Shown in pieces: positions 1 through 32,960 of a DNA stretch of 33,657 nucleotides (positions are counted from its first letter, which is position 1; each line of letters begins with the position of its first letter). A program made the translations under genes and the position numbers. The stretch lies in IMG/VR virus record IMGVR_UViG_2939152649_000001. One strand, written 5' to 3'. Origin of the DNA: a virus. Its lineage: Duplodnaviria; Heunggongvirae; Uroviricota; Caudoviricetes. The notes under the pieces were generated by a model that saw nothing but the letters and a program-made list of their open reading frames with translations, was not told the DNA's origin and did no database searches.

Positions 1-251
1 ATGAGCGGTAAGCGTTATCCCGAAGAGTTTAAAACTGAAGCAGTCAAACAGGTTGTTGATCGCGGTTATTCTGTTGCCAGCGTTGCAACACGTCTCGATA
101 TCACCACCCACAGCCTTTATGCCTGGATAAAGAAGTACGGTCCGGATTCTTCCACTAATAAAGAACAGTCAGATGCTCAGGCCGAGATCCGCCGTCTCCA
201 GAAAGAGCTGAAACGGGTTACCGACGAACGGGACATATTAAAAAAAGCCGC
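1..251 (+). pseudogene. IS3-family transposase OrfA, split by the IS30 insertion (last ~10 codons resume at 1473..1502)
   Basis: Translation MSGKRYPEEFKTEAVKQVV...ERDILKKAA; joining the flanks after removing IS30 and one copy of the GC duplication gives ...KKAAAYFAKLSD-stop, a typical IS3-family OrfA terminus. Confidence 0.8.
240..247 (+). other. A AAA AAG programmed -1 frameshift motif of the IS3-family element (OrfA to OrfAB)
   Basis: Run of seven A then G at the end of orfA; the -1 frame downstream reads ...RYAFIRDNSCCWPVRLLCRVLDVHPSGFYAW, continuous with OrfB. Confidence 0.6.
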
Positions 252-1472
252 TGTAGATTCAATTGGTCAACGCAACAGTTATGTGAAAACATGGGGTTGC
301 GGAGGTTTTTTGAATGAGACGAACATTTACAGCAGAGGAAAAAGCCTCTGTTTTTGAACTATGGAAGAACGGAACAGGCTTCAGTGAAATAGCGAATATC
401 CTGGGTTCAAAACCCGGAACGATCTTCACTATGTTAAGGGATACTGGCGGCATAAAACCCCATGAGCGTAAGCGGGCTGTAGCTCACCTGACACTGTCTG
501 AGCGCGAGGAGATACGAGCTGGTTTGTCAGCCAAAATGAGCATTCGTGCGATAGCTACTGCGCTGAATCGCAGTCCTTCGACGATCTCACGTGAAGTTCA
601 GCGTAATCGGGGCAGACGCTATTACAAAGCTGTTGATGCTAATAACCGAGCCAACAGAATGGCGAAAAGGCCAAAACCGTGCTTACTGGATCAAAATTTA
701 CCATTGCGAAAGCTTGTTCTGGAAAAGCTGGAGATGAAATGGTCTCCAGAGCAAATATCAGGATGGTTAAGGCGAACAAAACCACGTCAAAAAACGCTGC
801 GAATATCACCTGAGACAATTTATAAAACGCTGTACTTTCGTAGCCGTGAAGCGCTACACCACCTGAATATACAGCATCTGCGACGGTCGCATAGCCTTCG
901 CCATGGCAGGCGTCATACCCGCAAAGGCGAAAGAGGTACGATTAACATAGTGAACGGAACACCAATTCACGAACGTTCCCGAAATATCGATAACAGACGC
1001 TCTCTGGGGCATTGGGAGGGCGATTTAGTCTCAGGTACAAAAAACTCTCATATAGCCACACTTGTAGACCGAAAATCACGTTATACGATCATCCTTAGAC
1101 TCAGGGGCAAAGATTCTGTCTCAGTAAATCAGGCTCTTACCGACAAATTCCTGAGTTTACCGTCAGAACTCAGAAAATCACTGACATGGGACAGAGGAAT
1201 GGAACTGGCCAGACATCTAGAATTTACTGTCAGCACCGGCGTTAAAGTTTACTTCTGCGATCCTCAGAGTCCTTGGCAGCGGGGAACAAATGAGAACACA
1301 AATGGGCTAATTCGGCAGTACTTTCCTAAAAAGACATGTCTTGCCCAATATACTCAACATGAACTAGATCTGGTTGCTGCTCAGCTAAACAACAGACCGA
1401 GAAAGACACTGAAGTTCAAAACACCGAAAGAGATAATTGAAAGGGGTGTTGCATTGACAGATTGAATCTACA
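252..1472 (+). mobile_element. IS30, complete 1221-bp copy
   Basis: Terminal inverted repeats TGTAGATTCAATTGGTCAACGCAAC (252..) and its imperfect reverse complement ending ...GAATCTACA (..1472); flanked by 2-bp GC direct duplication (250-251 and 1473-1474); single 383-aa transposase ORF. Confidence 0.9.
314..1465 (+). CDS. insI: IS30 transposase
   Basis: 383-aa ORF MRRTFTAEEKASVFELWKNGTGFSEIANILG... recognised as the IS30 transposase; fills the element between the inverted repeats. Confidence 0.93.
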   Translation: MRRTFTAEEKASVFELWKNGTGFSEIANILGSKPGTIFTMLRDTGGIKPHERKRAVAHLTLSEREEIRAGLSAKMSIRAIATALNRSPSTISREVQRNRGRRYYKAVDANNRANRMAKRPKPCLLDQNLPLRKLVLEKLEMKWSPEQISGWLRRTKPRQKTLRISPETIYKTLYFRSREALHHLNIQHLRRSHSLRHGRRHTRKGERGTINIVNGTPIHERSRNIDNRRSLGHWEGDLVSGTKNSHIATLVDRKSRYTIILRLRGKDSVSVNQALTDKFLSLPSELRKSLTWDRGMELARHLEFTVSTGVKVYFCDPQSPWQRGTNENTNGLIRQYFPKKTCLAQYTQHELDLVAAQLNNRPRKTLKFKTPKEIIERGVALTD

Positions 1473-1558
1473 GCGGCGTACTTCGCAAAGCTGTCCGACT
1501 GAGGTACGCCTTTATCCGTGACAACTCCTGTTGCTGGCCTGTTCGCCTGCTCTGTCGG

Positions 1559-2371
1559 GTGCTGGATGTTCATCCCAGTGGTTTTTACGCCTGGCTTCAG
1601 CAGCCGCATTCACAACGCCATCAGGCAGACCTGAGACTGACAGGACAGATTAAACAGTTCTGGCTGGAATCGGGATGCGTCTATGGTTATCGCAAAATCC
1701 ATCTGGATTTGCGTGACAGCGGGCAACAGTGCGGAGTAAACAGAGTCTGGAGACTGATGAAACGTGTCGGAATAAAGGCTCAGGTCGGATACCGAAGCCC
1801 GCGGGCACGTAAAGGCGAGGCCAGTATCGTGTCACCCAACAGGCTCCAGCGACAGTTCAATCCGGATGCTCCTGATGAGCGTTGGGTAACGGACATAACC
1901 TACATCAGGACCCACGAAGGCTGGCTGTATCTTGCCGTTGTTGTTGATCTGTTCTCACGCAAAATTATCGGCTGGTCCATGCAATCCCGGATGACAAAGG
2001 ACATTGTCCTGAACGCACTGCTGATGGCTGTATGGCGGCGTAATCCCGAAAAACAGGTGCTGGTTCATTCGGATCAGGGCAGTCAGTACACAAGCCATGA
2101 GTGGCAGTCGTTCCTGAAATCACACGGCCTGGAGGGTAGCATGAGCCGTCGCGGTAACTGCCATGATAATGCGGTTGCAGAAAGTTTTTTCCAGTTGTTG
2201 AAACGTGAACGGATAAAGAAAAAGATCTACGGAACGCGGGAAGAAGCCCGCAGTGATATTTTTGATTACATCGAAATGTTTTATAACAGTAAGCGTCGGC
2301 ATGGTTCTAGCGAACAGATGTCACCGACAGAATATGAAAACCAGTATTATCAACGGCTCGGAAGTGTCTAG
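1559..2371 (+). CDS. IS3-family transposase OrfB (integrase catalytic core); normally made as OrfAB fusion by -1 frameshift
   Basis: 270-aa ORF with WVTDITYI...LAVVVDLFSRKIIGWS...HSDQGSQYTS...NAVAESFF motifs typical of DDE integrase-core transposases; reading frame extends upstream of the first Met to the slippery site. Confidence 0.85.
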   Translation: MLDVHPSGFYAWLQQPHSQRHQADLRLTGQIKQFWLESGCVYGYRKIHLDLRDSGQQCGVNRVWRLMKRVGIKAQVGYRSPRARKGEASIVSPNRLQRQFNPDAPDERWVTDITYIRTHEGWLYLAVVVDLFSRKIIGWSMQSRMTKDIVLNALLMAVWRRNPEKQVLVHSDQGSQYTSHEWQSFLKSHGLEGSMSRRGNCHDNAVAESFFQLLKRERIKKKIYGTREEARSDIFDYIEMFYNSKRRHGSSEQMSPTEYENQYYQRLGSV

Positions 2372-2389
2372 ATTATCCGTGGCGATTCA

Positions 2390-2674
2390 GTTATGAACTT
2401 GGGGGTCTATACCATTTGTAAGCAACGACAAGTATTCATCACGTAAAGCTCGTGCCTTCGCAAGTGTAAGGTGAGGATAGGTTCCTAAGCTCACCTTAGT
2501 TCGCTTTTTGGTCACAGGCACTGCATATCTGAAATACCAATTTTTCTTCCCTCCCTTCGCCAGGGGAGCGATTCGCAACAGCAAACCATCGCCGTCAAAA
2601 AGGTTAACCTCTTTTTCGGCAGGTTTGGTGCTTTTGATTTCAGTGTCAGTGAGCTTCTTAGCGATTTTGGCCAT
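2390..2674 (-). pseudogene. P4-type (CP4-57 IntA-like) tyrosine integrase, N-terminal arm-binding domain only; 3' part removed by the IS3-family insertion
   Basis: MAKIAKKLTDTEIKSTKPAEKEVNLFDGDGLLLRIAPLAKGGKKNWYFRYAVPVTKKRTKVSLGTYPHLTLAKARALRDEYLSLLTNGIDPQ matches the conserved N-terminus of P4-family integrases; the ORF runs into IS sequence after ~95 codons, and no catalytic domain follows. Confidence 0.75.
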
Positions 2675-2772
2675 GTTTGGGACCCTCGATTTTAGGACCC
2701 ATCTTCGTGGGTCCCATTCAGGGTGCCATAACTCGTAGTTCTCAGCAATTCTCACTAGACTACAATAGACGT

Positions 2773-3002: not shown

Positions 3003-4028
3003 TTAGCGATGCCAGTTGAGGTTATGAAGTGGATTTTTGGTAACGGCATCTTCCAGATGATCCGGTGCAAAATGGGCATAAATCATGGTCATTTTAATAT
3101 CAGCGTGCCCTAAAATATCCCTCAATACTAAAATGTTTCCGCCGTTCATCATAAAGTGGCTGGCGAAAGTGTGGCGCAGAACGTGGGTACATTGACCTTC
3201 AGGTAGTTCAATTCCAGCTCGTTTTACCGCACGCTCAAAAGCCTTTCGGCATGGTGTGAATAACTTTCCTCTGTTTTTGGGTAATTCTTCATACAGTTCC
3301 TGAGAAATAGGAACAGTTCGGTTTTTCTTTCCTTTTGTTTTGGTATAGGTAATTCGATACTTTGATATCTGGTTACCTTGCAGGTTTTCGGCTTCGCTCC
3401 ATCTTGCCCCGGTTGCCAGACAAATCTTGGCAATCATTAGCAGACTGGGACTTTGAGATTCAGCACAAGCGTCAAGCAGGCGTTTGATTTCATCAGCAGC
3501 AAGGAACGCCAGTTCACCCTCTGCAATTTTGAAAGTTGGCAGACCGGCGAGAGGGTTGGGTGCAGACCAATGTCCCAGCTTTTTCAGTGTGCCAAAAACT
3601 GAGGATAGGTTACGTTGTTCAAGGTTCACCGTTCTGGGCTTAACTGGTGACATGAGCACACCATCTTCGTTTTTGACCTCACCTTTTAATCTGGCTTCCC
3701 GGTATTTTGTGAAATCACCTGCTGTCAATTCAGAAGCGATGGGATCGCCAAGCCCATTACAAATGATTTTTAACTTAGCCATTAATCGCTTAGGGTCAGC
3801 GAGTGTCTGACCGTACAGGGAATACCATTGCTCAATCACTTCTGACAGTTGTCGCCGATCTTCCTTTTCTCCCAGCCAAGGTTTCTTGTTTACCTCGTCC
3901 ATGGTGAAATTCTCAAACGCAATGGCTTCGCCTTTCGTCGCAAATTGTTTGCGTACGCGTTTGCCATCTCGCCCGTTTGGGTAGCATTCACATAACCACT
4001 TTCCGTTCGGCTGTTTTCTGATGGTCAT
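3003..4028 (-). CDS. int: Phage integrase (tyrosine recombinase), P2/186 type
   Basis: 341-aa ORF next to attL; C-terminal catalytic region ...ATGARWSE...HVLRHTFASHFMMNGGNILVLRDILGHADIKMTMIYAHF carries the R..H-x-x-R..Y signature of tyrosine recombinases. Confidence 0.93.
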   Translation of the reverse strand: MTIRKQPNGKWLCECYPNGRDGKRVRKQFATKGEAIAFENFTMDEVNKKPWLGEKEDRRQLSEVIEQWYSLYGQTLADPKRLMAKLKIICNGLGDPIASELTAGDFTKYREARLKGEVKNEDGVLMSPVKPRTVNLEQRNLSSVFGTLKKLGHWSAPNPLAGLPTFKIAEGELAFLAADEIKRLLDACAESQSPSLLMIAKICLATGARWSEAENLQGNQISKYRITYTKTKGKKNRTVPISQELYEELPKNRGKLFTPCRKAFERAVKRAGIELPEGQCTHVLRHTFASHFMMNGGNILVLRDILGHADIKMTMIYAHFAPDHLEDAVTKNPLHNLNWHR

Positions 4029-4029
4029 A

Positions 4030-4662
4030 TCAAAGGCTCTTAATGATTTTCAGTGCGCGGCCTATTACCTTAATGTCATCCAGTTCGCACTCAAACGATG
4101 AATCATCCTGATGCACTACTAATCTGTTTCCCGGGAGTCGTGTCAATTTTACAATGCTTTTTATCCCGTCGATGTCCACTAACCACGTACCATTTACTGG
4201 TGGTGTTTGGTTGCGATCTATTAAATAAGAATCACCAGAAGTAGTCACCAGCAGCAGGTTGCTTGAGTCTGAGGGGAGTATGCTGCTATCAATGATTGCT
4301 TTTCCAGCATCGACCAATAAACCACCGTTGAGAGTTGCCTTTTCAATTTCAGGAGATACAAGCTCAGAAAGAGGTTTAACCTTGCTGGGGTTCACGGAAT
4401 TGATATTTTTTTTAGGGTCAATGTTTGAACCTGGCTCGCCCTGTCCGGTGGTTAGCCATAGTAAAGAAACTCCTGTTTCCAAGGCGCACTGAATCACCCA
4501 TTCTGCGGGAAAGCTATCTCTTAAGTATCTGTTTGCCATAGTGCTTTTTGATGCACCTAAGTGATCGCAAAGTTGCTGTCTGGACTTGAAATCATAGGCT
4601 GCCATTAGTCTATGGATAGCCTCTCTTCCCCCTGTATTCTCGCCAGCTTTTACCTGTATCAT
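4030..4662 (-). CDS. cI: Immunity repressor CI, 186 type
   Basis: 210-aa ORF directly upstream of int, divergent from the early operon; N-terminal HTH region with ...ANRYLR...CALETGVSLLWLTTGQG resembles 186-family CI; no obvious Ser/Lys autopeptidase dyad. Confidence 0.8.
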   Translation of the reverse strand: MIQVKAGENTGGREAIHRLMAAYDFKSRQQLCDHLGASKSTMANRYLRDSFPAEWVIQCALETGVSLLWLTTGQGEPGSNIDPKKNINSVNPSKVKPLSELVSPEIEKATLNGGLLVDAGKAIIDSSILPSDSSNLLLVTTSGDSYLIDRNQTPPVNGTWLVDIDGIKSIVKLTRLPGNRLVVHQDDSSFECELDDIKVIGRALKIIKSL

Positions 4663-6386: not shown

Positions 6387-6613
6387 TGGCTGATGCAATG
6401 GATCTCGTACAGCAGCGCGTTGAAGAAGAACGCCAGCGTCATATCCGTGCTGCCCGTGCCAAAACGCCGGGCGTGTCCCGCGTGCTTTGCATTGAGTGTG
6501 AAGCGCCAATTCCGCCAGCACGCCGCCGTGCCATTCCGGGTGTGCAGCTTTGCATTACCTGTCAGGAAATCGCAGAGCTGAAAGGCAAACATTACAACGG
6601 AGGTGCTGTATGA
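6386..6613 (+). CDS. TraR/DksA-family C4 zinc-finger protein
   Basis: 75-aa ORF with CIECEAPIP...(17 aa)...CITCQ (Cys-x2-Cys ... Cys-x2-Cys) at the C-terminus, as in P2-family early zinc-finger ORFs. Confidence 0.7.
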   Translation: MADAMDLVQQRVEEERQRHIRAARAKTPGVSRVLCIECEAPIPPARRRAIPGVQLCITCQEIAELKGKHYNGGAV

Positions 6614-7467
6614 GCACCATCCTGAAATGGGCGGGAAATAAAACCGCCATTATGTCCGAACTGAAAAAGCATCTTCCTGCTGGCCCGCGACTGGTTGAAC
6701 CTTTCGCGGGTTCCTGTGCAGTGATGATGGAGACGGAGTACCCCAGCTATCTTGTTGCGGATATTAATCCTGATTTAATCAACCTCTATAAAAAGGTTGC
6801 TGCTGATTGTGAATCGTTTATATCTCGCGCCAGAGTTTTATTTGAGATCGCAAACAGGGGGGTGGCTTATTACAACATAAGGCAGGAGTTTAATTACTCA
6901 ACTGAAATTACTGATTTCATGAAAGCGGTATATTTCCTGTATCTCAATCGTCACGGTTACCGTGGTTTATGTCGCTATAACAAGAGCGGGCATTTCAACA
7001 TTCCCTACGGTAATTATAAAAATCCGTATTTCCCTGAAAAAGAAATTCGCGCATTTGCAGAAAAAGCCCAGCGAGCAACGTTTATCTGCGCCAGCTTTGA
7101 TGAAACGCTGGCGATGTTGAAGGCGGGGGATGTGGTGTATTGCGATCCGCCGTATGACGGTACGTTTTCCGGCTATCACACTGATGGTTTCACTGAAGAT
7201 GACCAGTATCACCTGGCATCCGTTCTTGAACATCGGTCATCAGAAGGACATCCGGTCATTGTTTCTAACAGTGATACATCCCTGATCCGTTCGCTGTATC
7301 GCAATTTTACTCACCACTATATCAAGGTAAAACGCAGCATCGGTGTGGCAGCTGGCGAGGGTAAATCAGCAACAGAAATCATTGCTGTTTCCGGGCCGCG
7401 CTGCTGGGTGGGATTTGATTATTCGCGTGGCGTGGATAGTTCTGCCGTGTACGGAGTACGTGCATGA
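6610..7467 (+). CDS. dam: DNA adenine methyltransferase (Dam family, N6-adenine)
   Basis: N-terminal LKWAGNK and VEPFAGS (AdoMet binding), [16 protein letters not shown], and catalytic DPPY (VYCDPPYDG); ATG at 6610 overlaps the upstream stop (ATGA). Confidence 0.9.
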
Positions 7468-9878
7468 GCCATGCCGATATGAACAACTGCTGCGGCTTTA
7501 ACGAGGCTGCCGCAGCGTTCTCATGGAACAGCCCGAAAAAGGCCATTAACCCTTATCTGGACCCGGCGGAAGTTGCGCCGGTTTCTGCGCTTTCAAACCT
7601 GATCGCTCTGTACGCTGCCGATAACGAGCAGGAACACCTGCGCCGCGAGGCACTGAGTGATCAGGTCTGGGAGCGTTATTTCTTTAATGAATCCCGTGAT
7701 CCTGTCCAGCGCGAAATGGAGCAGGATAAGCTCATTAGTCGGGCAAAGCTGGCGCATGAGCAGCAGCGTTTTAATCCAGATATGGTCATTCTGGCGGACG
7801 TCAATGCCCAGCCTTCCCATATCAGCAAGCCGCTGATGCAACGTATTGAATACTTCAGCAGCTTGGGCAGGCCAAAGGCTTATTCCCGCTATTTGCGTGA
7901 GACGATTAAGCCATGTTTGGAGCGACTGGAGCATGTACGCGACAGCCAGCTATCTGCATCTTTTCGTTTTATGGCAAGCCATGTAGGGCTGGACGGCCTG
8001 CTGATTCTGCCTGAAATGAGTCAGGATCAGGTGAAACGCCTGTCTACTCTTGTCGCTGCGCATATGAGCATGTGTCTTGATGCCGCTTGTGGTGATTTGT
8101 ACGCCACCGATGATGTTAAGCCAGAAGAAATCCGCAAGACATGGGAAAAGGTGGCAGCAGAAACCCTGCGACTGGATGTTATCCCGCCTGCGTTTGAGCA
8201 ACTTCGTCGGAAAAGAAACCGCCGTAAACCCGTGCCCTATGAACTCATTCCGGGTTCGCTGGCGCGTATGTTGTGCGCCGATTGGTGGTACCGGAAATTA
8301 TGGAAGATGCGTTGCGAATGGCGGGAAGAGCAGTTGCGTGCTGTTTGCCTGGTCAGCAAAAAAGCATCTCCCTATGTCAGCTATGAAGCCGTGATGCATA
8401 AACGTGAGCAGCGCCGTAAGTCGCTGGAGTTTTTCCGTTCTCATGAACTGGTGAACGAAGACGGCGACACGCTGGACATGGAGGATGTGGTAAACGCCAG
8501 CAGCAGCAACCCGGCGCATCGCCGCAATGAGATGATGGCCTGTGTTAAAGGTCTGGAGCTTATCGCTGAAATGCGCAGTGACTGTGCCGTTTTCTACACT
8601 ATCACCTGTCCGTCGCGTTTCCATTCCACGCTCAATAACGGCAGACCAAACCCGACCTGGACAAACGCGACGGTAAGACAAAGCAGCGATTATCTGGTCG
8701 GCATGTTTGCTGCATTTCGTAAGGCTATGCACAAAGCCGGGTTGCGCTGGTATGGCGTGCGGGTGGCTGAACCGCATCATGACGGCACAGTTCACTGGCA
8801 CCTGTTGTGTTTCATGCGCAAAAAAGACCGCCGCGCCATTACTGCATTGTTGCGTAAGTTTGCCATCCGTGAAGACCGCGAGGAGCTGGGCAATAACACG
8901 GGGCCACGCTTTAAGTCTGAGCTGATAAACCCGCGCAAAGGTACGCCAACAAGCTACATCGCGAAATACATCAGTAAGAACATTGACGGGCGTGGTCTGG
9001 CTGGCGAGATCAGCAAGGAAACGGGTAAATCCCTGCGTGATAACGCTGAATACGTTAATGCCTGGGCGTCTCTGCATCGTGTTCAGCAATTCCGCTTCTT
9101 TGGCATTCCGGGGCGTCAGGCTTACCGTGAACTGCGATTGCTGGCTGGTCAGGCGGCAAGGCAACAGGGGGACAAAAAAGCAGGTGCGCCGGTACTGGAT
9201 AACCCGCGCCTTGATGCAATCCTGGCTGCTGCTGATGCTGGTTGTTTTGCCACCTACATCATGAAGCAGGGCGGCGTACTGGTTCCCCGCAAATATCACC
9301 TCATCAGAACTGCTTATGAAATCAACGAAGAGCCGACCGCCTATGGCGATCACGGTATTCGTATTTATGGCATCTGGTCACCCATTGCAGAGGGCAAGAT
9401 CTGCACTCATGCGGTGAAGTGGAAAATGGTTCGTAAGGCCGTTGACGTTCAGGAGGCGGCAGCCGACCAGGGCGCTTGCGCCCCTTGGACTCGTGGCAAT
9501 AACTGTCCCCTTGCTGAAAATTTGAACCAACAGGAGAAAGATAAATCAGCTGATGGGGACCCCAGAACGGACATTACCAGCATGGATGACAAGGAGTTGC
9601 ACGAATACCTGCACAGTATGAGCAAAAAAGAGCGCCGGGAACTGGCAGCAAGGTTACGCCTGGTGAAACCGAAACGGCGTAAAGACTACAAACAGCGAAT
9701 TACAGACCATCAGCGACTGCAGCTCGTGTATGAGCTGAAGTCCAGAGGATTTGATGGCAGCGAGAAAGAGGTCGATTTACTCCTTCGCGGAGGCAGTATT
9801 CCGTCAGGAGCAGGCCTGCGTATCTTCTATCGGAACCAGCGTTTGCAGGAAGATGATAAGTGGCGAAACCTGTATTAA
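7464..9878 (+). CDS. A: Replication initiation protein A (rolling-circle HUH endonuclease)
   Basis: 804-aa ORF with HUH motif (TVHWHLLCF) and active-site tyrosine region [12 protein letters not shown]; position after the early regulatory genes as in P2/186. Confidence 0.93.
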
Positions 9879-9970
9879 TTACGCGGGTTAACAATTCGTG
9901 CTCTTAATAATACCAGGCATATCAGGCTGATGAACGTAAAAAATCGTTTTACATCAGTAAGATTATTATA

Positions 9971-9990
9971 TACTGTAAATATAAACAGTG
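9971..9990. promoter_or_regulatory. LexA operator (SOS box) over the promoter of the tum/dinI module
   Basis: TACTGTAAATATAAACAGTG fits CTGT-N8-ACAG with an AT-rich centre; TTACAT at 9949..9954 is a possible -35 element about 40 bp upstream of the first ORF. Confidence 0.75.
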
Positions 9991-10031
9991 GTTATGCATA
10001 CAGCATTGCGTGTGGTGTCATAGGAGGAAAG

Positions 10032-10220
10032 ATGCAGGACTATTTTTTGGAGTCTTTGAAGCTCCAGCGCATTGATTTTTTTCTTAAGCTTGTAGCGGCT
10101 AGTGAGTGTAGTGATGAAGAGAAGGGGCTGGCTCTGCAGTGGGTTTCTGAATTGACTGATGAACTCATGGCAAAAATCAGAACCCACGAATACAACCGCT
10201 CAATGGATGTCATCAGCTGA
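10032..10220 (+). CDS. Small acidic protein at the tum locus (putative Tum-like antirepressor)
   Basis: 62-aa ORF starting MQDYFLESLK with AGGAGG ribosome-binding site, directly downstream of the LexA box and coupled to the DinI-like gene; function inferred from position only. Confidence 0.5.
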   Translation: MQDYFLESLKLQRIDFFLKLVAASECSDEEKGLALQWVSELTDELMAKIRTHEYNRSMDVIS

Positions 10221-10230
10221 GGTGACTTTT

Positions 10231-10464
10231 ATGCGCATTGAAATAATGATCGATAAAGAGCAGAAGATTAGCCAGTCTACCCTGGACGCCCTTGAATCCG
10301 AGCTTTACCGCAATCTGCGCCCCCTGTATCCCAAAACGGTAATTCGCATTCGCAAAGGTAGCTCTAACGGTGTGGAACTAACCGGACTGCAACTGGACGA
10401 AGAAAGAAAACAAGTGATGAAAATTATGCAGAAGGTGTGGGAAGACGACAGCTGGCTGCATTAA
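10231..10464 (+). CDS. DinI-family protein
   Basis: 77-aa ORF MRIEIMIDKEQKISQSTLDALESELYRNLRPLYPKTVIRIRKGSSNGVELTGL...KIMQKVWEDDSW aligns along its length with E. coli DinI as recalled; GAGGTG ribosome-binding site overlaps the upstream stop. Confidence 0.75.
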   Translation: MRIEIMIDKEQKISQSTLDALESELYRNLRPLYPKTVIRIRKGSSNGVELTGLQLDEERKQVMKIMQKVWEDDSWLH

Positions 10465-10598
10465 GAAACGTTGCTGGCGTCTGAACTTGCTTCTGGCGTC
10501 AGCAAGGTTGAACAACGAGCCCTTGCGAGGCGTTAGCTCTGTAGTGCATGTCTATGCCGCATGAGATCGCATGATCGTTTGAGGATCGTTTTTGCTAA

Positions 10599-10624
10599 GG
10601 CCCGCCAGAACTGGCGGGCTTTTG
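10599..10624 (+). terminator. Rho-independent terminator after the tum/dinI operon
   Basis: GGCCCGCCAG-AA-CTGGCGGGCT hairpin (perfect 9-10 bp stem, 2-nt loop) followed by TTT. Confidence 0.6.
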
Positions 10625-10668
10625 CGTAGATCATGCAGGTGCATGAAAACCACTACATAAAGCGGGCA

Positions 10669-10687
10669 GGCGTGGCGGGGATACGAG
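10669..10687. other. Candidate cos (cohesive end) site
   Basis: GGCGTGGCGGGGATACGAG shares its first 13 nt with the P2/186 cos 19-mers as recalled (GGCG-A/T-GGCGGGGAAAGCA-); lies between replication/tum genes and portal gene Q as in P2-family genomes. Confidence 0.45.
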
Positions 10688-10757
10688 CGCGCGCAACGGG
10701 GTAAAATGGCCAAAATCCGGCACAGCCTCTGGCCCGCTGGCGGCCTCATTTAGTGGA

Positions 10758-10767
10758 GGGGGGGGGG
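10758..10767. repeat. G10 homopolymeric tract
   Basis: Ten consecutive G between the candidate cos site and the 3' end of Q. Confidence 0.9.
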
Positions 10768-10849
10768 AGATTCAGGGCAAAAAGAAACGCCCCGCAGAAT
10801 GCTGCTGAGGCGTTGTGAGAGTTGGTCGGGTTTTGATGTTATGAGTATG

Positions 10850-11893
10850 TCAGCCTCGTTTGCCCTTAAGCCCTAAGTCATAAGCTTCAAAACGGATCAC
10901 CTCTTCATTCAGCCAGTCATTCAGCTCCTGCAGTCGCTTTTGCAGTGGCATCAGTTCATTGCGGACGAAGACACGGCTCGCTTTTTCCACATCACCAAAG
11001 CCGCCAGTGTTGTTGGGAATGATGCCCATCATTTGCGGCGGTACGCGGTGAGCCGCCATCATGTCATCGCGGCTGACGTTCTTGATGTTCAGAAATTCAT
11101 CCTTCGCCGCGACTTCCGACAACGGGATAATCTGAATGCCATCTTTTTTGCCGTTAGGCGAGTACATAAACAGGTTGCGGAAGTTGCCCGGCCCTTTAGC
11201 ACTTTTCATTGCCTTGCGGATGTTGTTCACATCCTCCTGGTTCTGCGCGGCGTCGGTCATGTACATGATGAAGCCTGCGTGGCTGCCGTTAATGTAATAC
11301 TTGCGGCGGAACAGCGTGGCGGATTCGTTGAGCAGAGCTGACGGAATGGCAGAAAGGTAACCCGGCAGACCATAAATCTCCTGGTTGATATCCGGCTCCA
11401 TCAGGTGGAAGACGTTACCTTTTGTGAACTGATACGGCTGTGTCGTCAGGCTGTATTGCACAAACCAGTATGTTTCAAGGTCAAGCCCGCGCCGGGTGTA
11501 TTTTGCCAGTGCAGGCTCCAGCGAAATAACTTCACCAAAGCGATTCGTGCGCTTCTCCAGATAGGCGTTACCAAAAACCAGATAGTCCTGCACAAAACGG
11601 GTAAATGCCTGCTGGCTGAGAAGGCGATGTGGAATATAGGTACTGCTGATGATGTCACGTTTAACACTGATCGGGGAGCTGTGGTGCACGGCGGCGCGGA
11701 AGGTTCGTGCCAGTCCGTCAAAACTGACGGGCGGCTCATACCAGCGATCCATCTGTACGCATTCCACATAGTCCAGCAGTTCGCGGCGGTCCAGTACAGG
11801 AATGGGATCACCAAAGCTGAAAGCCTCAGCAACGGGTTTTTTAGTTTCTTCTGCAGTTACGGTTTCGCCTGGCGCGATATGTTCTTTCATCAA
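10850..11893 (-). CDS. Q: Portal protein
   Basis: 347-aa ORF next to cos, transcribed toward it, same size and position as P2 gpQ; overlaps the terminase gene by 4 nt. Confidence 0.93.
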   Translation of the reverse strand: MMKEHIAPGETVTAEETKKPVAEAFSFGDPIPVLDRRELLDYVECVQMDRWYEPPVSFDGLARTFRAAVHHSSPISVKRDIISSTYIPHRLLSQQAFTRFVQDYLVFGNAYLEKRTNRFGEVISLEPALAKYTRRGLDLETYWFVQYSLTTQPYQFTKGNVFHLMEPDINQEIYGLPGYLSAIPSALLNESATLFRRKYYINGSHAGFIMYMTDAAQNQEDVNNIRKAMKSAKGPGNFRNLFMYSPNGKKDGIQIIPLSEVAAKDEFLNIKNVSRDDMMAAHRVPPQMMGIIPNNTGGFGDVEKASRVFVRNELMPLQKRLQELNDWLNEEVIRFEAYDLGLKGKRG

Positions 11894-32593: not shown

Positions 32594-32642
32594 TATTTGG
32601 TGGAGCTGGCGGGAGTTGAACCCGCGTCCGAAATTCCTACAT
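32594..32642. repeat. 49-bp att core at the 3' end of ssrA (attR), direct repeat of 2837..2885
   Basis: Exact identity to the left copy. Confidence 0.9.
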
Positions 32643-32960
32643 CCTCGGTACTACATGCTTAGTCAGTCTTTACATTCGCTTGCCAGCTGCGGACGGACAC
32701 GCCACTAACAAACTAGCCTGATTAAGTTTTAACGCTTCAACCCCAGGCAGGACTTCCACGCGATCTCTTTTGGGTTTGACCTCTCTTGATCCCCGTCCTA
32801 AGAGCGGAGGCTAGGGAGAGAGGGCTCTAAGCAGGTTATTAAGCTGCTAAAGCGTAGTTTTCGTCGTTTGCGACTATTTTTTGCGGCTTTTTACGAGGCC
32901 AACCGCCCCTCGGCATGCACCTTGGGTTTCGCAAATCCCGTCGAATCCAGAATCAGCCCC
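32598..32960 (-). ncRNA. ssrA: tmRNA (transfer-messenger RNA), 363 nt
   Basis: Reverse complement reads GGGGCTGATTCTGGATTCGACGGGATTTGCGAAACCC ... GCAAACGACGAAAACTACGCTTTAGCAGCTTAA (ANDENYALAA tag) ... GGGTTCAACTCCCGCCAGCTCCACCA, matching E. coli tmRNA as recalled. Confidence 0.97.

Follow-up and report, generated by a model that had tools for sequence, protein, structure and literature searches.

The two small genes between replication gene A and cos form, with a probability that we put at roughly 85%, the SOS induction operon of a Fels-2/186-like P2-family prophage adjoining ssrA. The anatomy of this operon, its homologies, its conservation, the purifying selection on it and its gene context were established here (Table 1; the window is the whole stretch of DNA that was analysed, 33,657 nucleotides). 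The gene order in the window is int-CI-apl-cII-...-dam-A-tumA-tumB-cos-portal, and tumA occupies the same position, between gene A and cos, in 186, PSP3 and Fels-2. In a Pfam scan the window CI matched PF07022 and PF16452, Apl and CII/CP76 were also found to be encoded, and no Peptidase_S24 match was present in CI (i.e. the autocleavage domain is absent). This bears out the sequence-only reading, which had placed the DNA in a 186-type prophage. In the PDB the window CI matched 186 CI (2FJR, E = 2e-26). As CI carries no autocleavage domain, SOS induction of the prophage needs an antirepressor route. The sole Rfam match over the whole window was tmRNA. Of 5,426 complete E. coli genomes, ∼956, roughly one in six, contained the 6.7-kb early region with the module.

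Table 1. Features of the tumA-tumB operon and of the region up to cos (positions in the window)
Feature	Position	Strand	Basis
−35 hexamer TTTACA, p95 equivalent (putative)	9948..9953	+	analogy with annotated 186 p95, no start mapping
−10 hexamer TACTGT, within LexA box 1 (putative)	9971..9976	+	same hexamer and position as 186 p95
LexA box 1, TACTGTAAATATAAACAGTG	9971..9990	+	17/20 to consensus; conserved
LexA-like box 2, CAGTGGTTATGCATACAGCA	9986..10005	+	GTG-N10-CAG core 9988-10003; overlooked in the sequence-only reading
Shine-Dalgarno AGGAGG of tumA	10022..10027	+	sequence read; TAGGAGG conserved in related loci
tumA-like gene, 62 aa, putative anti-CI antirepressor	10032..10220	+	phrog_698, E = 3.6e-38
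Shine-Dalgarno GAGG of tumB, overlaps tumA stop codon	10219..10222	+	sequence read
tumB, DinI-family, 77 aa	10231..10464	+	Pfam PF06183, E = 6.6e-23
Covarying RNA hairpin directly 3' of tumB, no U tract	10467..10509	+	17 pairs; folds in window
Conserved leader GAACAACGAG..GCGAGGCGTTAGCT, remnant	10510..10541	+	alignment of related loci
Intrinsic terminator: GC-rich stem 10597-10622, GAAC loop, UUUU	10597..10623	+	RNA fold
cos sequence, 19 nt	10669-10687		sequence

Upstream of tumA lies a putative promoter equivalent to 186 p95. Its −35 and −10 hexamers are separated by 17 nt (186 p95 reads TTCACA-18-TACTGT), and in nearly all related loci either TTTACA or TTCACA stands at equal distance from TACTGT. 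A generic sigma-70 scan called no promoter at the module because TACTGT agrees with TATAAT at only three of six positions. The predicted −10 hexamer lies inside LexA box 1, so that the candidate operator overlaps the promoter. The earlier claim of a LexA box over a promoter-like region after gene A thus held, in a layout like that of 186 p95. We compared this region across 38 related loci, drawn from several genera of Peduoviridae and many genera of enterobacteria. In 35 of them a CTG-N10-CAG box (at least 15/20) precedes the homologous ORF by 38–69 nt; CTG and CAG of box 1 are invariant in the related loci, the spacer between them varies and the flanks diverge. A second box overlaps the first: the two cores (9973–9988 in box 1 and 9988–10003 in box 2) share one base, as in colicin operators, and 22 of 36 loci have a box 2, likewise offset by +15. 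The copy in the window agrees with the consensus at 13 of 20 positions, the weakest match among the double operators. By this layout the predicted operator is a colicin-type double operator with two overlapping LexA boxes. In the Fels-2 copy (L002) box 1 is identical to that of the window and box 2 differs at four positions, and on Col plasmids the operators in front of the colicin N and tRNase-colicin genes are 85–92% identical to this Fels-2 operator. Colicin operators are described as being occupied cooperatively by two LexA dimers, so that repression is tight and induction late; by analogy, this may also hold here.

An acidic 62-aa ORF followed by a 77-aa DinI-family ORF had been proposed, and we recovered both genes. 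TumA begins with ATG and has a pI of 4.6 (12 acidic and 7 basic residues). Its identity is 61–100% across many genera, and it is 98% identical to Fels-2 STM2728. The median dN/dS of tumA was 0.07 over 195 pairs at a dS of ∼1.1, which means strong purifying selection and indicates that tumA is a real gene. The comparison with 186 Tum suggested in the sequence-only reading was negative by BLAST and positive by profile. Pairwise BLASTP gave no alignment of TumA with 186 Tum or with PSP3 TumA, nor of PSP3 TumA with 186 Tum, whereas residues 1–70 of 186 Tum matched phrog_698, the family of TumA, with an E value of 5.9e-6 (residues 6–44 on positions 6–44, collinear). In profile searches TumA also matched phrog_8554 (2.4e-8) and phrog_1993, the family of PSP3 TumA (0.0022), and a C-x7-A-L motif is invariant in an alignment. 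Residues E7, L20, C26, A34 and E40 of TumA are invariant. At the level of profiles, and at this level only, TumA and the N-terminal half of 186 Tum are distantly homologous. Neither Pfam nor NCBIfam holds a family for TumA, and the public RefSeq annotation of tumA is 'hypothetical protein'. An AF2 model of TumA (pLDDT 86) predicts a helical hairpin with helices 2–23 and 28–61. A Foldseek search with this model against the PDB returned generic hairpins only, with E values above 2, and when 186 Tum and the profile of the TumA family were searched against PDB sequences, no solved structure related to the N-terminal half came up. tumA and the LexA box are found without any dinI in ESSI-2-type phages and in ∼14 genome loci, and they are also kept where dinI is truncated, indicating that the small ORF and the operator are the conserved core of the module. 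By analogy, the putative function of TumA would be to bind CI and induce the prophage.

TumB matches PF06183 with 81.3 bits (cut-off 24.2) over profile positions 1–63 of 63, and it aligns to residues 1–77 of DinI in the PDB (1GHH, E = 2.7e-6). Consistent with the statement in the sequence-only reading that the C-terminal part of Tum is DinI-like, TumB also aligns to residues 71–145 of 186 Tum (41% identity, E = 3e-24). It is 77% identical to PSP3 TumB and, in protein, 100% identical to Fels-2 STM2726.1. Against the NCBIfam equivalog for chromosomal E. coli DinI (NF007893) TumB scored 42.7 bits, below the cut-off of 111; TumB is a phage TumB-type paralogue and not dinI itself. The gap between tumA and tumB measures 10 nt in the window; related genome loci have 9–13 nt here, and PSP3 has 3 nt. 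The two cistrons had been called translationally coupled, a term that would fit only loosely given a 10-nt gap and a GAGG of tumB's own. DinI is missing from ∼14 of 33 related genome loci, and since so many relatives are without TumB we regard it as an accessory and not a core part of the module. From its family membership, TumB may act on RecA filaments and modulate the coprotease. In the Gifsy prophages, deletion of the dinI homologue caused no measurable change in induction (Lemire et al. 2011, PMC3121763), which makes the role of TumB uncertain.

The region 3' of tumB begins with an RNA hairpin in which 9 of the 17 pairs show compensatory changes across 16 loci; Rfam gave no match over positions 9850–10900, even at E values up to 1. 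The hairpin is followed by a conserved leader that in relatives carries the Shine-Dalgarno sequence and the ATG of a third operon gene. This gene (85–96 aa, phrog_2100) was found in L013, L023, L025 and L028. The leader ATG is also retained in L012 and L016 (the 63-aa ORF of L012 was compared with Pfam only), and the window has CTG TAG at the ATG position. Judged from this alignment, the third operon gene has been lost in the window and its leader persists as a remnant. The canonical terminator lies 135 nt past the tumB stop codon and 46 nt before cos. A generic terminator scan missed it, and folding was used instead. The strong terminator that had been described after the DinI-family gene therefore exists, but it is not adjacent to the gene. 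Downstream of the module, relatives carry variable cargo that reaches 4.7 kb; in the window this slot is empty. The identification of the locus with the tin/old cargo site of P2 was correct, as P2 carries orf91-tin-old in the same A-to-cos interval. The contrast drawn there between an induction module and a defence system is a false one, as cargo in the relatives sits downstream of the module.

These elements suggest how the module could work. In an undamaged cell LexA would occupy the double operator (9971–10005) and cover the −10 and start region of the promoter, which would keep the operon silent. DNA damage would activate RecA, LexA would cleave itself and the operon would be transcribed, with the transcript probably ending at about 10597–10623, shortly before cos. 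TumA, an acidic and predicted helical hairpin, would bind the 186-type CI and stop it from binding its operators; with CI binding lost, the early lytic promoter would be freed and the prophage induced. TumB may at the same time act on RecA filaments and tune the SOS response. In this scheme LexA binding, inducibility, the binding of TumA to CI and any effect of TumB are predicted from analogy with 186, PSP3 and Fels-2.

We asked whether TumA varies together with the repressor that it is thought to inactivate. A TumA identical to that of the window was paired with 18 CI clusters, which are 37–92% identical to the window CI and include an L006-type CI at 43% identity, Fels-2 CI at 57% and the 186-like CI of L026, and TumA and CI did not covary within the Fels-2-type family (Mantel r ∼0). 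As one TumA occurs with 18 CI types, TumA is not matched to one immunity type, which one would not expect of a tightly matched pair of repressor and antirepressor. For the antirepressor reading to fit with this lack of covariation, which by itself decides neither for nor against binding, TumA would have to contact a part of the CI surface that is conserved. The N-terminal DNA-binding domain of CI, residues 1–80, is far better conserved than the C-terminal oligomerisation domain, residues 100–210. TumA may thus be a class-wide and not an immunity-specific antirepressor, one that docks where the surface of the CI N-terminal domain is conserved, an idea that we advance tentatively and rate at somewhat below even odds. 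If it is true, immunity regions could be swapped while SOS inducibility is kept, and one induced P2-like prophage could switch on heteroimmune co-resident relatives. A colicin-type double LexA operator would then put a high damage threshold on a common trigger.

The same lack of covariation can also be read differently, with the LexA operon real and TumA an SOS-induced protein that has another target (RecA, LexA, Apl or a host factor) and is no CI antirepressor. The prophage would then be induced by another route, or not at all. Identical TumA proteins beside 18 CI types would agree with this, as would a generic helical hairpin fold without a Pfam or NCBIfam family or a solved relative, and the direct evidence on the split-form antirepressor is second-hand. 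However, TumA is homologous to the non-DinI half of 186 Tum, an established anti-CI factor, and with a CI that has no autocleavage domain SOS induction needs some antirepressor. TumA/Tum subfamilies also associate, if coarsely, with CI classes: Fels-2-type TumA goes with CIs that are ∼30–36% identical to 186 CI, and 186-type Tum is found mostly with CIs that are 41–100% identical to it. The Gifsy phages offer examples of broad antirepressors (Lemire et al. 2011, PMC3121763). We consider a TumA with a target other than CI unlikely.

Two further explanations would do away with either the small ORF or its regulation. The DinI-like gene could be the functional product, an SOS-modulating cargo that benefits the host, and the 62-aa ORF a leader or incidental. 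DinI is indeed the sole part with a curated family, and the 62-aa ORF is labelled hypothetical in public annotation, but an incidental ORF would hardly show a dN/dS of 0.07 at a dS of ∼1.1, be 61–100% identical across many genera and remain together with the LexA box where dinI is missing or truncated. This explanation is already disfavoured and we hold it to be very improbable. Still less probable, in our estimate, is that the LexA match is a chance AT-rich palindrome and that expression is constitutive or comes from the upstream early operon. The CTGT-N8-ACAG core, of which box 1 is the sole instance in the window, is not significant alone: this 16-nt core is expected 0.43 times per window and occurred at least once in 37 of 100 shuffles, and the generic scan saw no promoter. 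The complete 20-mer of box 1, in contrast, is within three mismatches of TACTGTATATATATACAGTA, which was equalled in 0 of 100 shuffles. A chance palindrome also sits poorly with a box present in 35 of 38 loci with CTG and CAG invariant between diverging flanks, with the near identity of the Fels-2 operator copy to colicin SOS operators, and with the annotation of the homologous 186 promoter as SOS-dependent. An SOS induction operon with TumA as antirepressor remains our preferred reading.

As a biological finding this adds little, since Fels-2-like prophages carry this operon as their standard module for SOS induction. Its practical value lies in annotation. Since RefSeq labels the putative antirepressor gene a hypothetical protein and neither Pfam nor NCBIfam offers a model for it, predictions of inducibility that seek only cleavable repressors would misclassify these very common prophages. 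The shared TumA, the colicin-like double operator and the covarying hairpin after tumB also raise testable questions on the triggering of 186-type switches and on cross-induction between co-resident P2-like prophages.

Finally, we compared the module with known systems. In Fels-2 of Salmonella LT2, STM2728 and STM2726.1 likewise follow gene A behind a double operator and have an equal intercistronic gap. Fels-2 differs from the window in its CI, which is only 57% identical, and in carrying two cargo genes, of 243 aa and 565 aa, that separate dinI from the portal gene; the window has none there. Like the prophage described here, Fels-2 presumably integrates at ssrA. PSP3 resembles the window in having tumA and tumB as two cistrons after gene A behind a LexA box, with a hairpin and a leader after tumB; its GenBank annotation describes tumA as 'similar to 5' end 186 tum; UV induction of prophage' and tumB as 'similar to dinI and 3' end of 186 tum'. 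It differs in that its TumA belongs to the phrog_1993 subfamily and is ∼15% identical to TumA of the window; its LexA box is single, its leader is short and its intercistronic gap is 3 nt. Fels-2 and PSP3 have been described as having tum split in two, and the upstream gene of PSP3 was named, from a personal communication, as the carrier of the antirepressor activity (Lemire et al. 2011, PMC3121763). The division of tum into two cistrons, to which the sequence-only reading had drawn attention, is therefore supported by profile homology but not noteworthy: the split arrangement is already known from both phages (PMC3121763) and is very common.

In 186, Tum made from the LexA-regulated p95 inactivates CI after UV (PMC7708051). 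The p95-tum-orf97 region is like the window in that the −10 TACTGT lies inside the LexA box, at the same genome position and with a 186-type CI as target, and the N- and C-terminal halves of Tum are homologous to TumA and TumB, respectively. However, 186 Tum is one polypeptide of 146 aa, from which internal starts also yield the DinI-like part alone, and 186 has a single LexA box and a terminator, t95a, directly after tum, which is followed by orf97. Clusters of fusion length with a DinI domain numbered 2 among the 150 representative clusters listed, so the fused Tum of 186 is the exception.

The dinI-antirepressor-irsA operons of Gifsy-1/2/3 are also LexA-controlled, and in them a homologue of DinI is paired with a small antirepressor whose target is a non-cleavable repressor. 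In contrast to the window, dinI comes first in these operons, the phages are lambdoid, and GfoA/GftA and their repressors belong to unrelated families. The Gifsy antirepressors work in trans on several repressors (Lemire et al. 2011, PMC3121763). The closest likeness of the operator is to colicin operons (colicin N and the tRNase colicins), in which overlapping LexA boxes stand in the same register with nearly the same sequence (TATACTGTA.ATA.AA.CAGTGGTTAT..TACAG). For such double operators, occupancy by two LexA dimers and a very tight repression have been described. They control a plasmid bacteriocin gene and have another −35 region and leader, and their likeness to the operator of the window is limited to ∼40 nt.

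We asked whether the small acidic ORF preceding the DinI-family gene (tumA and tumB, respectively; see the table) is the other half of Tum, the fused 146-aa antirepressor of phage 186. By BLASTP, the 62-aa product matched neither 186 Tum nor PSP3 TumA, and PSP3 TumA did not match 186 Tum; at the divergence between TumA and Tum, pairwise comparison is too weak. In profile searches the ORF matched phrog_698 (E 3.6e-38), phrog_8554 (2.4e-8) and phrog_1993 (0.0022). PSP3 TumA fell into phrog_1993 (2.7e-32), and residues 1-70 of 186 Tum matched phrog_1993 (1.5e-23), phrog_8554 (3.4e-12) and phrog_698 (5.9e-6), with Tum residues 6-44 collinear with phrog_698 positions 6-44. At the level of sequence, the profiles settle the question. 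The split tum proposed in the sequence-only reading is thus borne out by comparison with 186 Tum: the 62-aa ORF is related to the Tum N-terminus at profile level only, and the DinI ORF to residues 71-145 by pairwise alignment (41% identity, E 3e-24). A multiple alignment showed an invariant C-x7-A-L motif (a Cys, with an Ala-Leu pair eight residues on) and a common hydrophobic pattern. The AlphaFold2 model of TumA is a helical hairpin (helices 2-23 and 28-61, pLDDT 86) with the cysteine in the turn.

Features of the window that bear on the SOS module
Feature	Position	Strand	Remarks
int	3003-4028	minus	
CI	4030-4662	minus	
apl, cII, several small genes	between CI and dam		
dam	6610-7467		
replication gene A	7464-9878		
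SOS module (operator/promoter, tumA, tumB)	between gene A and cos		
LexA box 1	9971-9990		TACTGTAAATATAAACAGTG
LexA-like box 2	9986-10005		CAGTGGTTATGCATACAGCA; directly after box 1
tumA (62-aa ORF)	10032-10220		AGGAGG 4 nt 5' of ATG
tumB (DinI ORF)	10231-10464		Pfam DinI, 81 bits, E 6.6e-23
hairpin without U tract	10467-10509		directly past tumB stop; stable fold
canonical terminator	stem 10597-10622, then UUUU		135 nt after tumB stop, 46 nt before cos
cos-like 19-mer	10669-10687		GGCGTGGCGGGGATACGAG
portal and terminase	past cos	minus	

The tumA product has a pI of 4.6 (12 acidic and 7 basic residues). Since the median dN/dS was 0.07 (dS ∼1.1, 195 pairs), tumA is a constrained protein gene. 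Many database entries use upstream starts (84-130 aa), and only the 62-aa form is conserved; the 96-aa version would start at 9930 and read across the promoter and both LexA boxes. Between tumA and tumB there is a gap of 10 nt, and a GAGG overlaps the tumA stop codon; translational coupling is possible. Among 33 related genome loci, dinI followed tumA after 9-13 nt in ∼18, was absent in ∼14 and truncated in two, and ESSI-2-type phages carry tumA without dinI. DinI is therefore an optional part of the SOS module.

The claimed LexA box also held up, as a predicted site. The bare core CTGT-N8-ACAG is expected 0.43 times per window, so its chance occurrence alone would not be improbable; the 20-mer of box 1, however, differs from the LexA consensus at no more than three positions, a fit that was not equalled in any of 100 shuffles. 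We then compared the control regions of 38 loci (186, PSP3, Fels-2, two ESSI-2-type phages and 33 genomes spread over many genera of enterobacteria). In 35 of them a CTG-N10-CAG box with at least 15/20 matches to the consensus lay 38-69 nt 5' of the tumA-type start. Of the remaining three loci, one is cut off by a contig end, one lacks a box and one has a frameshifted gene. Across 26 distinct boxes the spacer varied, but CTG and CAG were invariant. At nearly all related loci a −35 element, TTTACA or TTCACA, stands 17 nt from TACTGT, which is the layout of p95, the annotated LexA-regulated promoter of 186.

Box 2 was found in a fixed register to box 1 in 22 of 36 loci, the window included, and the 16-nt cores of the two boxes have one G in common, as in the colicin register. 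Of these double operators, the window's has the weakest box 2 (13/20 to consensus). The colicin comparison was made with the Fels-2 copy of the operator, whose box 1 is the same as the window's and whose box 2 has 4 differences; this copy (∼40 nt) was 85-92% identical to the operators of colicin N and tRNase colicins on >1,000 small Col plasmids. In colicin genes, the double SOS operator is described as binding two LexA dimers, which gives very tight repression with few cells expressing (PMC2994835). In 186, PSP3 and the ESSI-2 types there is a single LexA box, whereas the window's operator is double.

Downstream of tumB, a strong terminator had been claimed. A canonical terminator is indeed present, but it is not adjacent to tumB. 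The hairpin directly 3' of the dinI stop is common to 16 loci (17 pairs, with compensatory changes in 9 of 17) and is followed by a conserved leader, GGTTGAACAACGAG, then 4-6 variable nt, then GCGAGGCGTTAG; hairpin and leader together span 10467-10541 in the window. No Rfam match was found for this element. In six loci the SD and ATG of a third gene lie within the leader; ORFs of 85-96 aa from four of the six were scanned and belong to phrog_2100 and to no Pfam family. Because the window reads CTG and then TAG where relatives have the ATG, it has lost the third gene and keeps just the leader. The element, which occupies the position of the partial terminator t95a in 186, could act in processing, stability or partial termination.

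From the module end to the portal gene, relatives have 375-4,749 nt with varied ORFs inside, and the window has 386 nt (10465-10850). Its sole ORF (10552-10749, minus strand, 65 aa) covers both terminator and cos and is probably not a real gene. The stretch 5' of the cos-like 19-mer resembles the sequence that flanks cos on the left in 186 and P2. P2 carries orf91-tin-old in the same A-to-cos interval. With the variable cargo beyond the module in relatives, this places the hotspot downstream of the SOS module. The proposal that the module occupies the tin/old hotspot is thus right about the interval; by this comparison, though, the module has replaced no defence system, and the cargo slot is empty in the window.

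The P2-family prophage adjoins ssrA, with the tmRNA gene (32598-32960, minus strand) near its late end, and a tRNA-like 3' fragment lies at ∼2790-2860, near the int end; both are consistent with integration at ssrA, presumably also the Fels-2 site. Outside the prophage, window 1-2755 looks like a decayed island beside ssrA. From their translations, we take its ORFs 1-357 and 1559-2371 to be an IS3-family element, a 383-aa gene inserted between them (314-1465) to be a transposase, and a 122-aa N-terminal fragment (2387-2755, minus strand) to come from a second integrase. The dam gene encodes a D12-class DNA adenine methylase and lies immediately 5' of gene A, overlapping it. Fels-2 and ESSI-2-type phages also have a methylase gene upstream of A, whereas 186 has orf84 there and the inspected A-upstream region of P2 has orf80-orf83, without a methylase. 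The window's CI has Pfam domains PF07022 and PF16452 and matches the solved 186 CI structure (2FJR, E 2e-26), a Pfam scan found no Peptidase_S24 domain in it, and CII is of the CP76 type. The switch is therefore 186-type and not P2-type or lambda-type.

Does TumA then follow the CI beside it? Across 24 genome loci with a Fels-2-type TumA (TumA identity 61-100%, CI identity 28-99%), the expected covariation was not found (Mantel r −0.02). In 70 viral contigs that share the window's TumA at 100% identity, CIs (37-92% identical to the window's) fell into 18 different 85%-identity clusters, and only 7 of the 70 belonged to the window's own. Similarly, the CI of Fels-2 is 57% identical to the window's although its TumA is 98% identical, and 186-type Tum N-termini with 83-99% identity were paired with 11 CI clusters. 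What is left is a coarse association: partner CIs of Fels-2-type TumA are ∼30-36% identical to 186 CI and those of 186-type Tum mostly 41-100%. Some pairs break this pattern, among them that of a Pantoea stewartii prophage, in which a Fels-2-type TumA goes with a CI resembling that of 186 (60% identical). Among partners of Fels-2-type TumA, the mean major-residue frequency was 0.73 in the N-terminal DNA-binding domain of CI versus 0.47 in the C-terminal domain. The simplest reading is that TumA would recognise a surface conserved in the N-terminal domain of CI and act class-wide, not immunity-specifically; the alternative, a target other than CI, seems unlikely to us. Class-wide action has been shown experimentally for Gifsy antirepressors (PMC3121763).

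The observation is confirmed and its interpretation as a split-tum SOS module is supported; we infer LexA binding, damage inducibility, TumA-CI binding and any TumB effect on RecA from 186, PSP3, Fels-2 and family membership. This arrangement has been described before and is very widespread: the 6.7-kb early region including the module was found in 956 of 5,426 complete E. coli genomes (at least 80% coverage), with tumA labelled 'hypothetical protein' in RefSeq. In Fels-2, STM2728 is 98% identical to the tumA product and STM2726.1, whose record remarks on similarity to PSP3 TumB, is 100% identical to the tumB protein. The PSP3 annotation likens tumA to the 5' end of 186 tum, with UV induction of the prophage, and tumB to dinI and the 3' end of tum. 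A passage in Lemire et al. 2011 (PMC3121763), citing Bunny et al. 2002, has tum split in two in Fels-2 and PSP3 and assigns the antirepressor activity in PSP3 to the upstream gene, on the basis of a personal communication; in 186, Tum made from p95 inactivates CI after UV (PMC7708051). The split-tum inference was therefore right and had already been published. When 1.84 billion representative proteins were searched with a TumA profile, 155 clusters matched, nearly all of 50-100 aa and stand-alone. As only two clusters among the matches listed carry DinI (146 and 157 aa), it is the fused Tum of 186 that is the unusual form.
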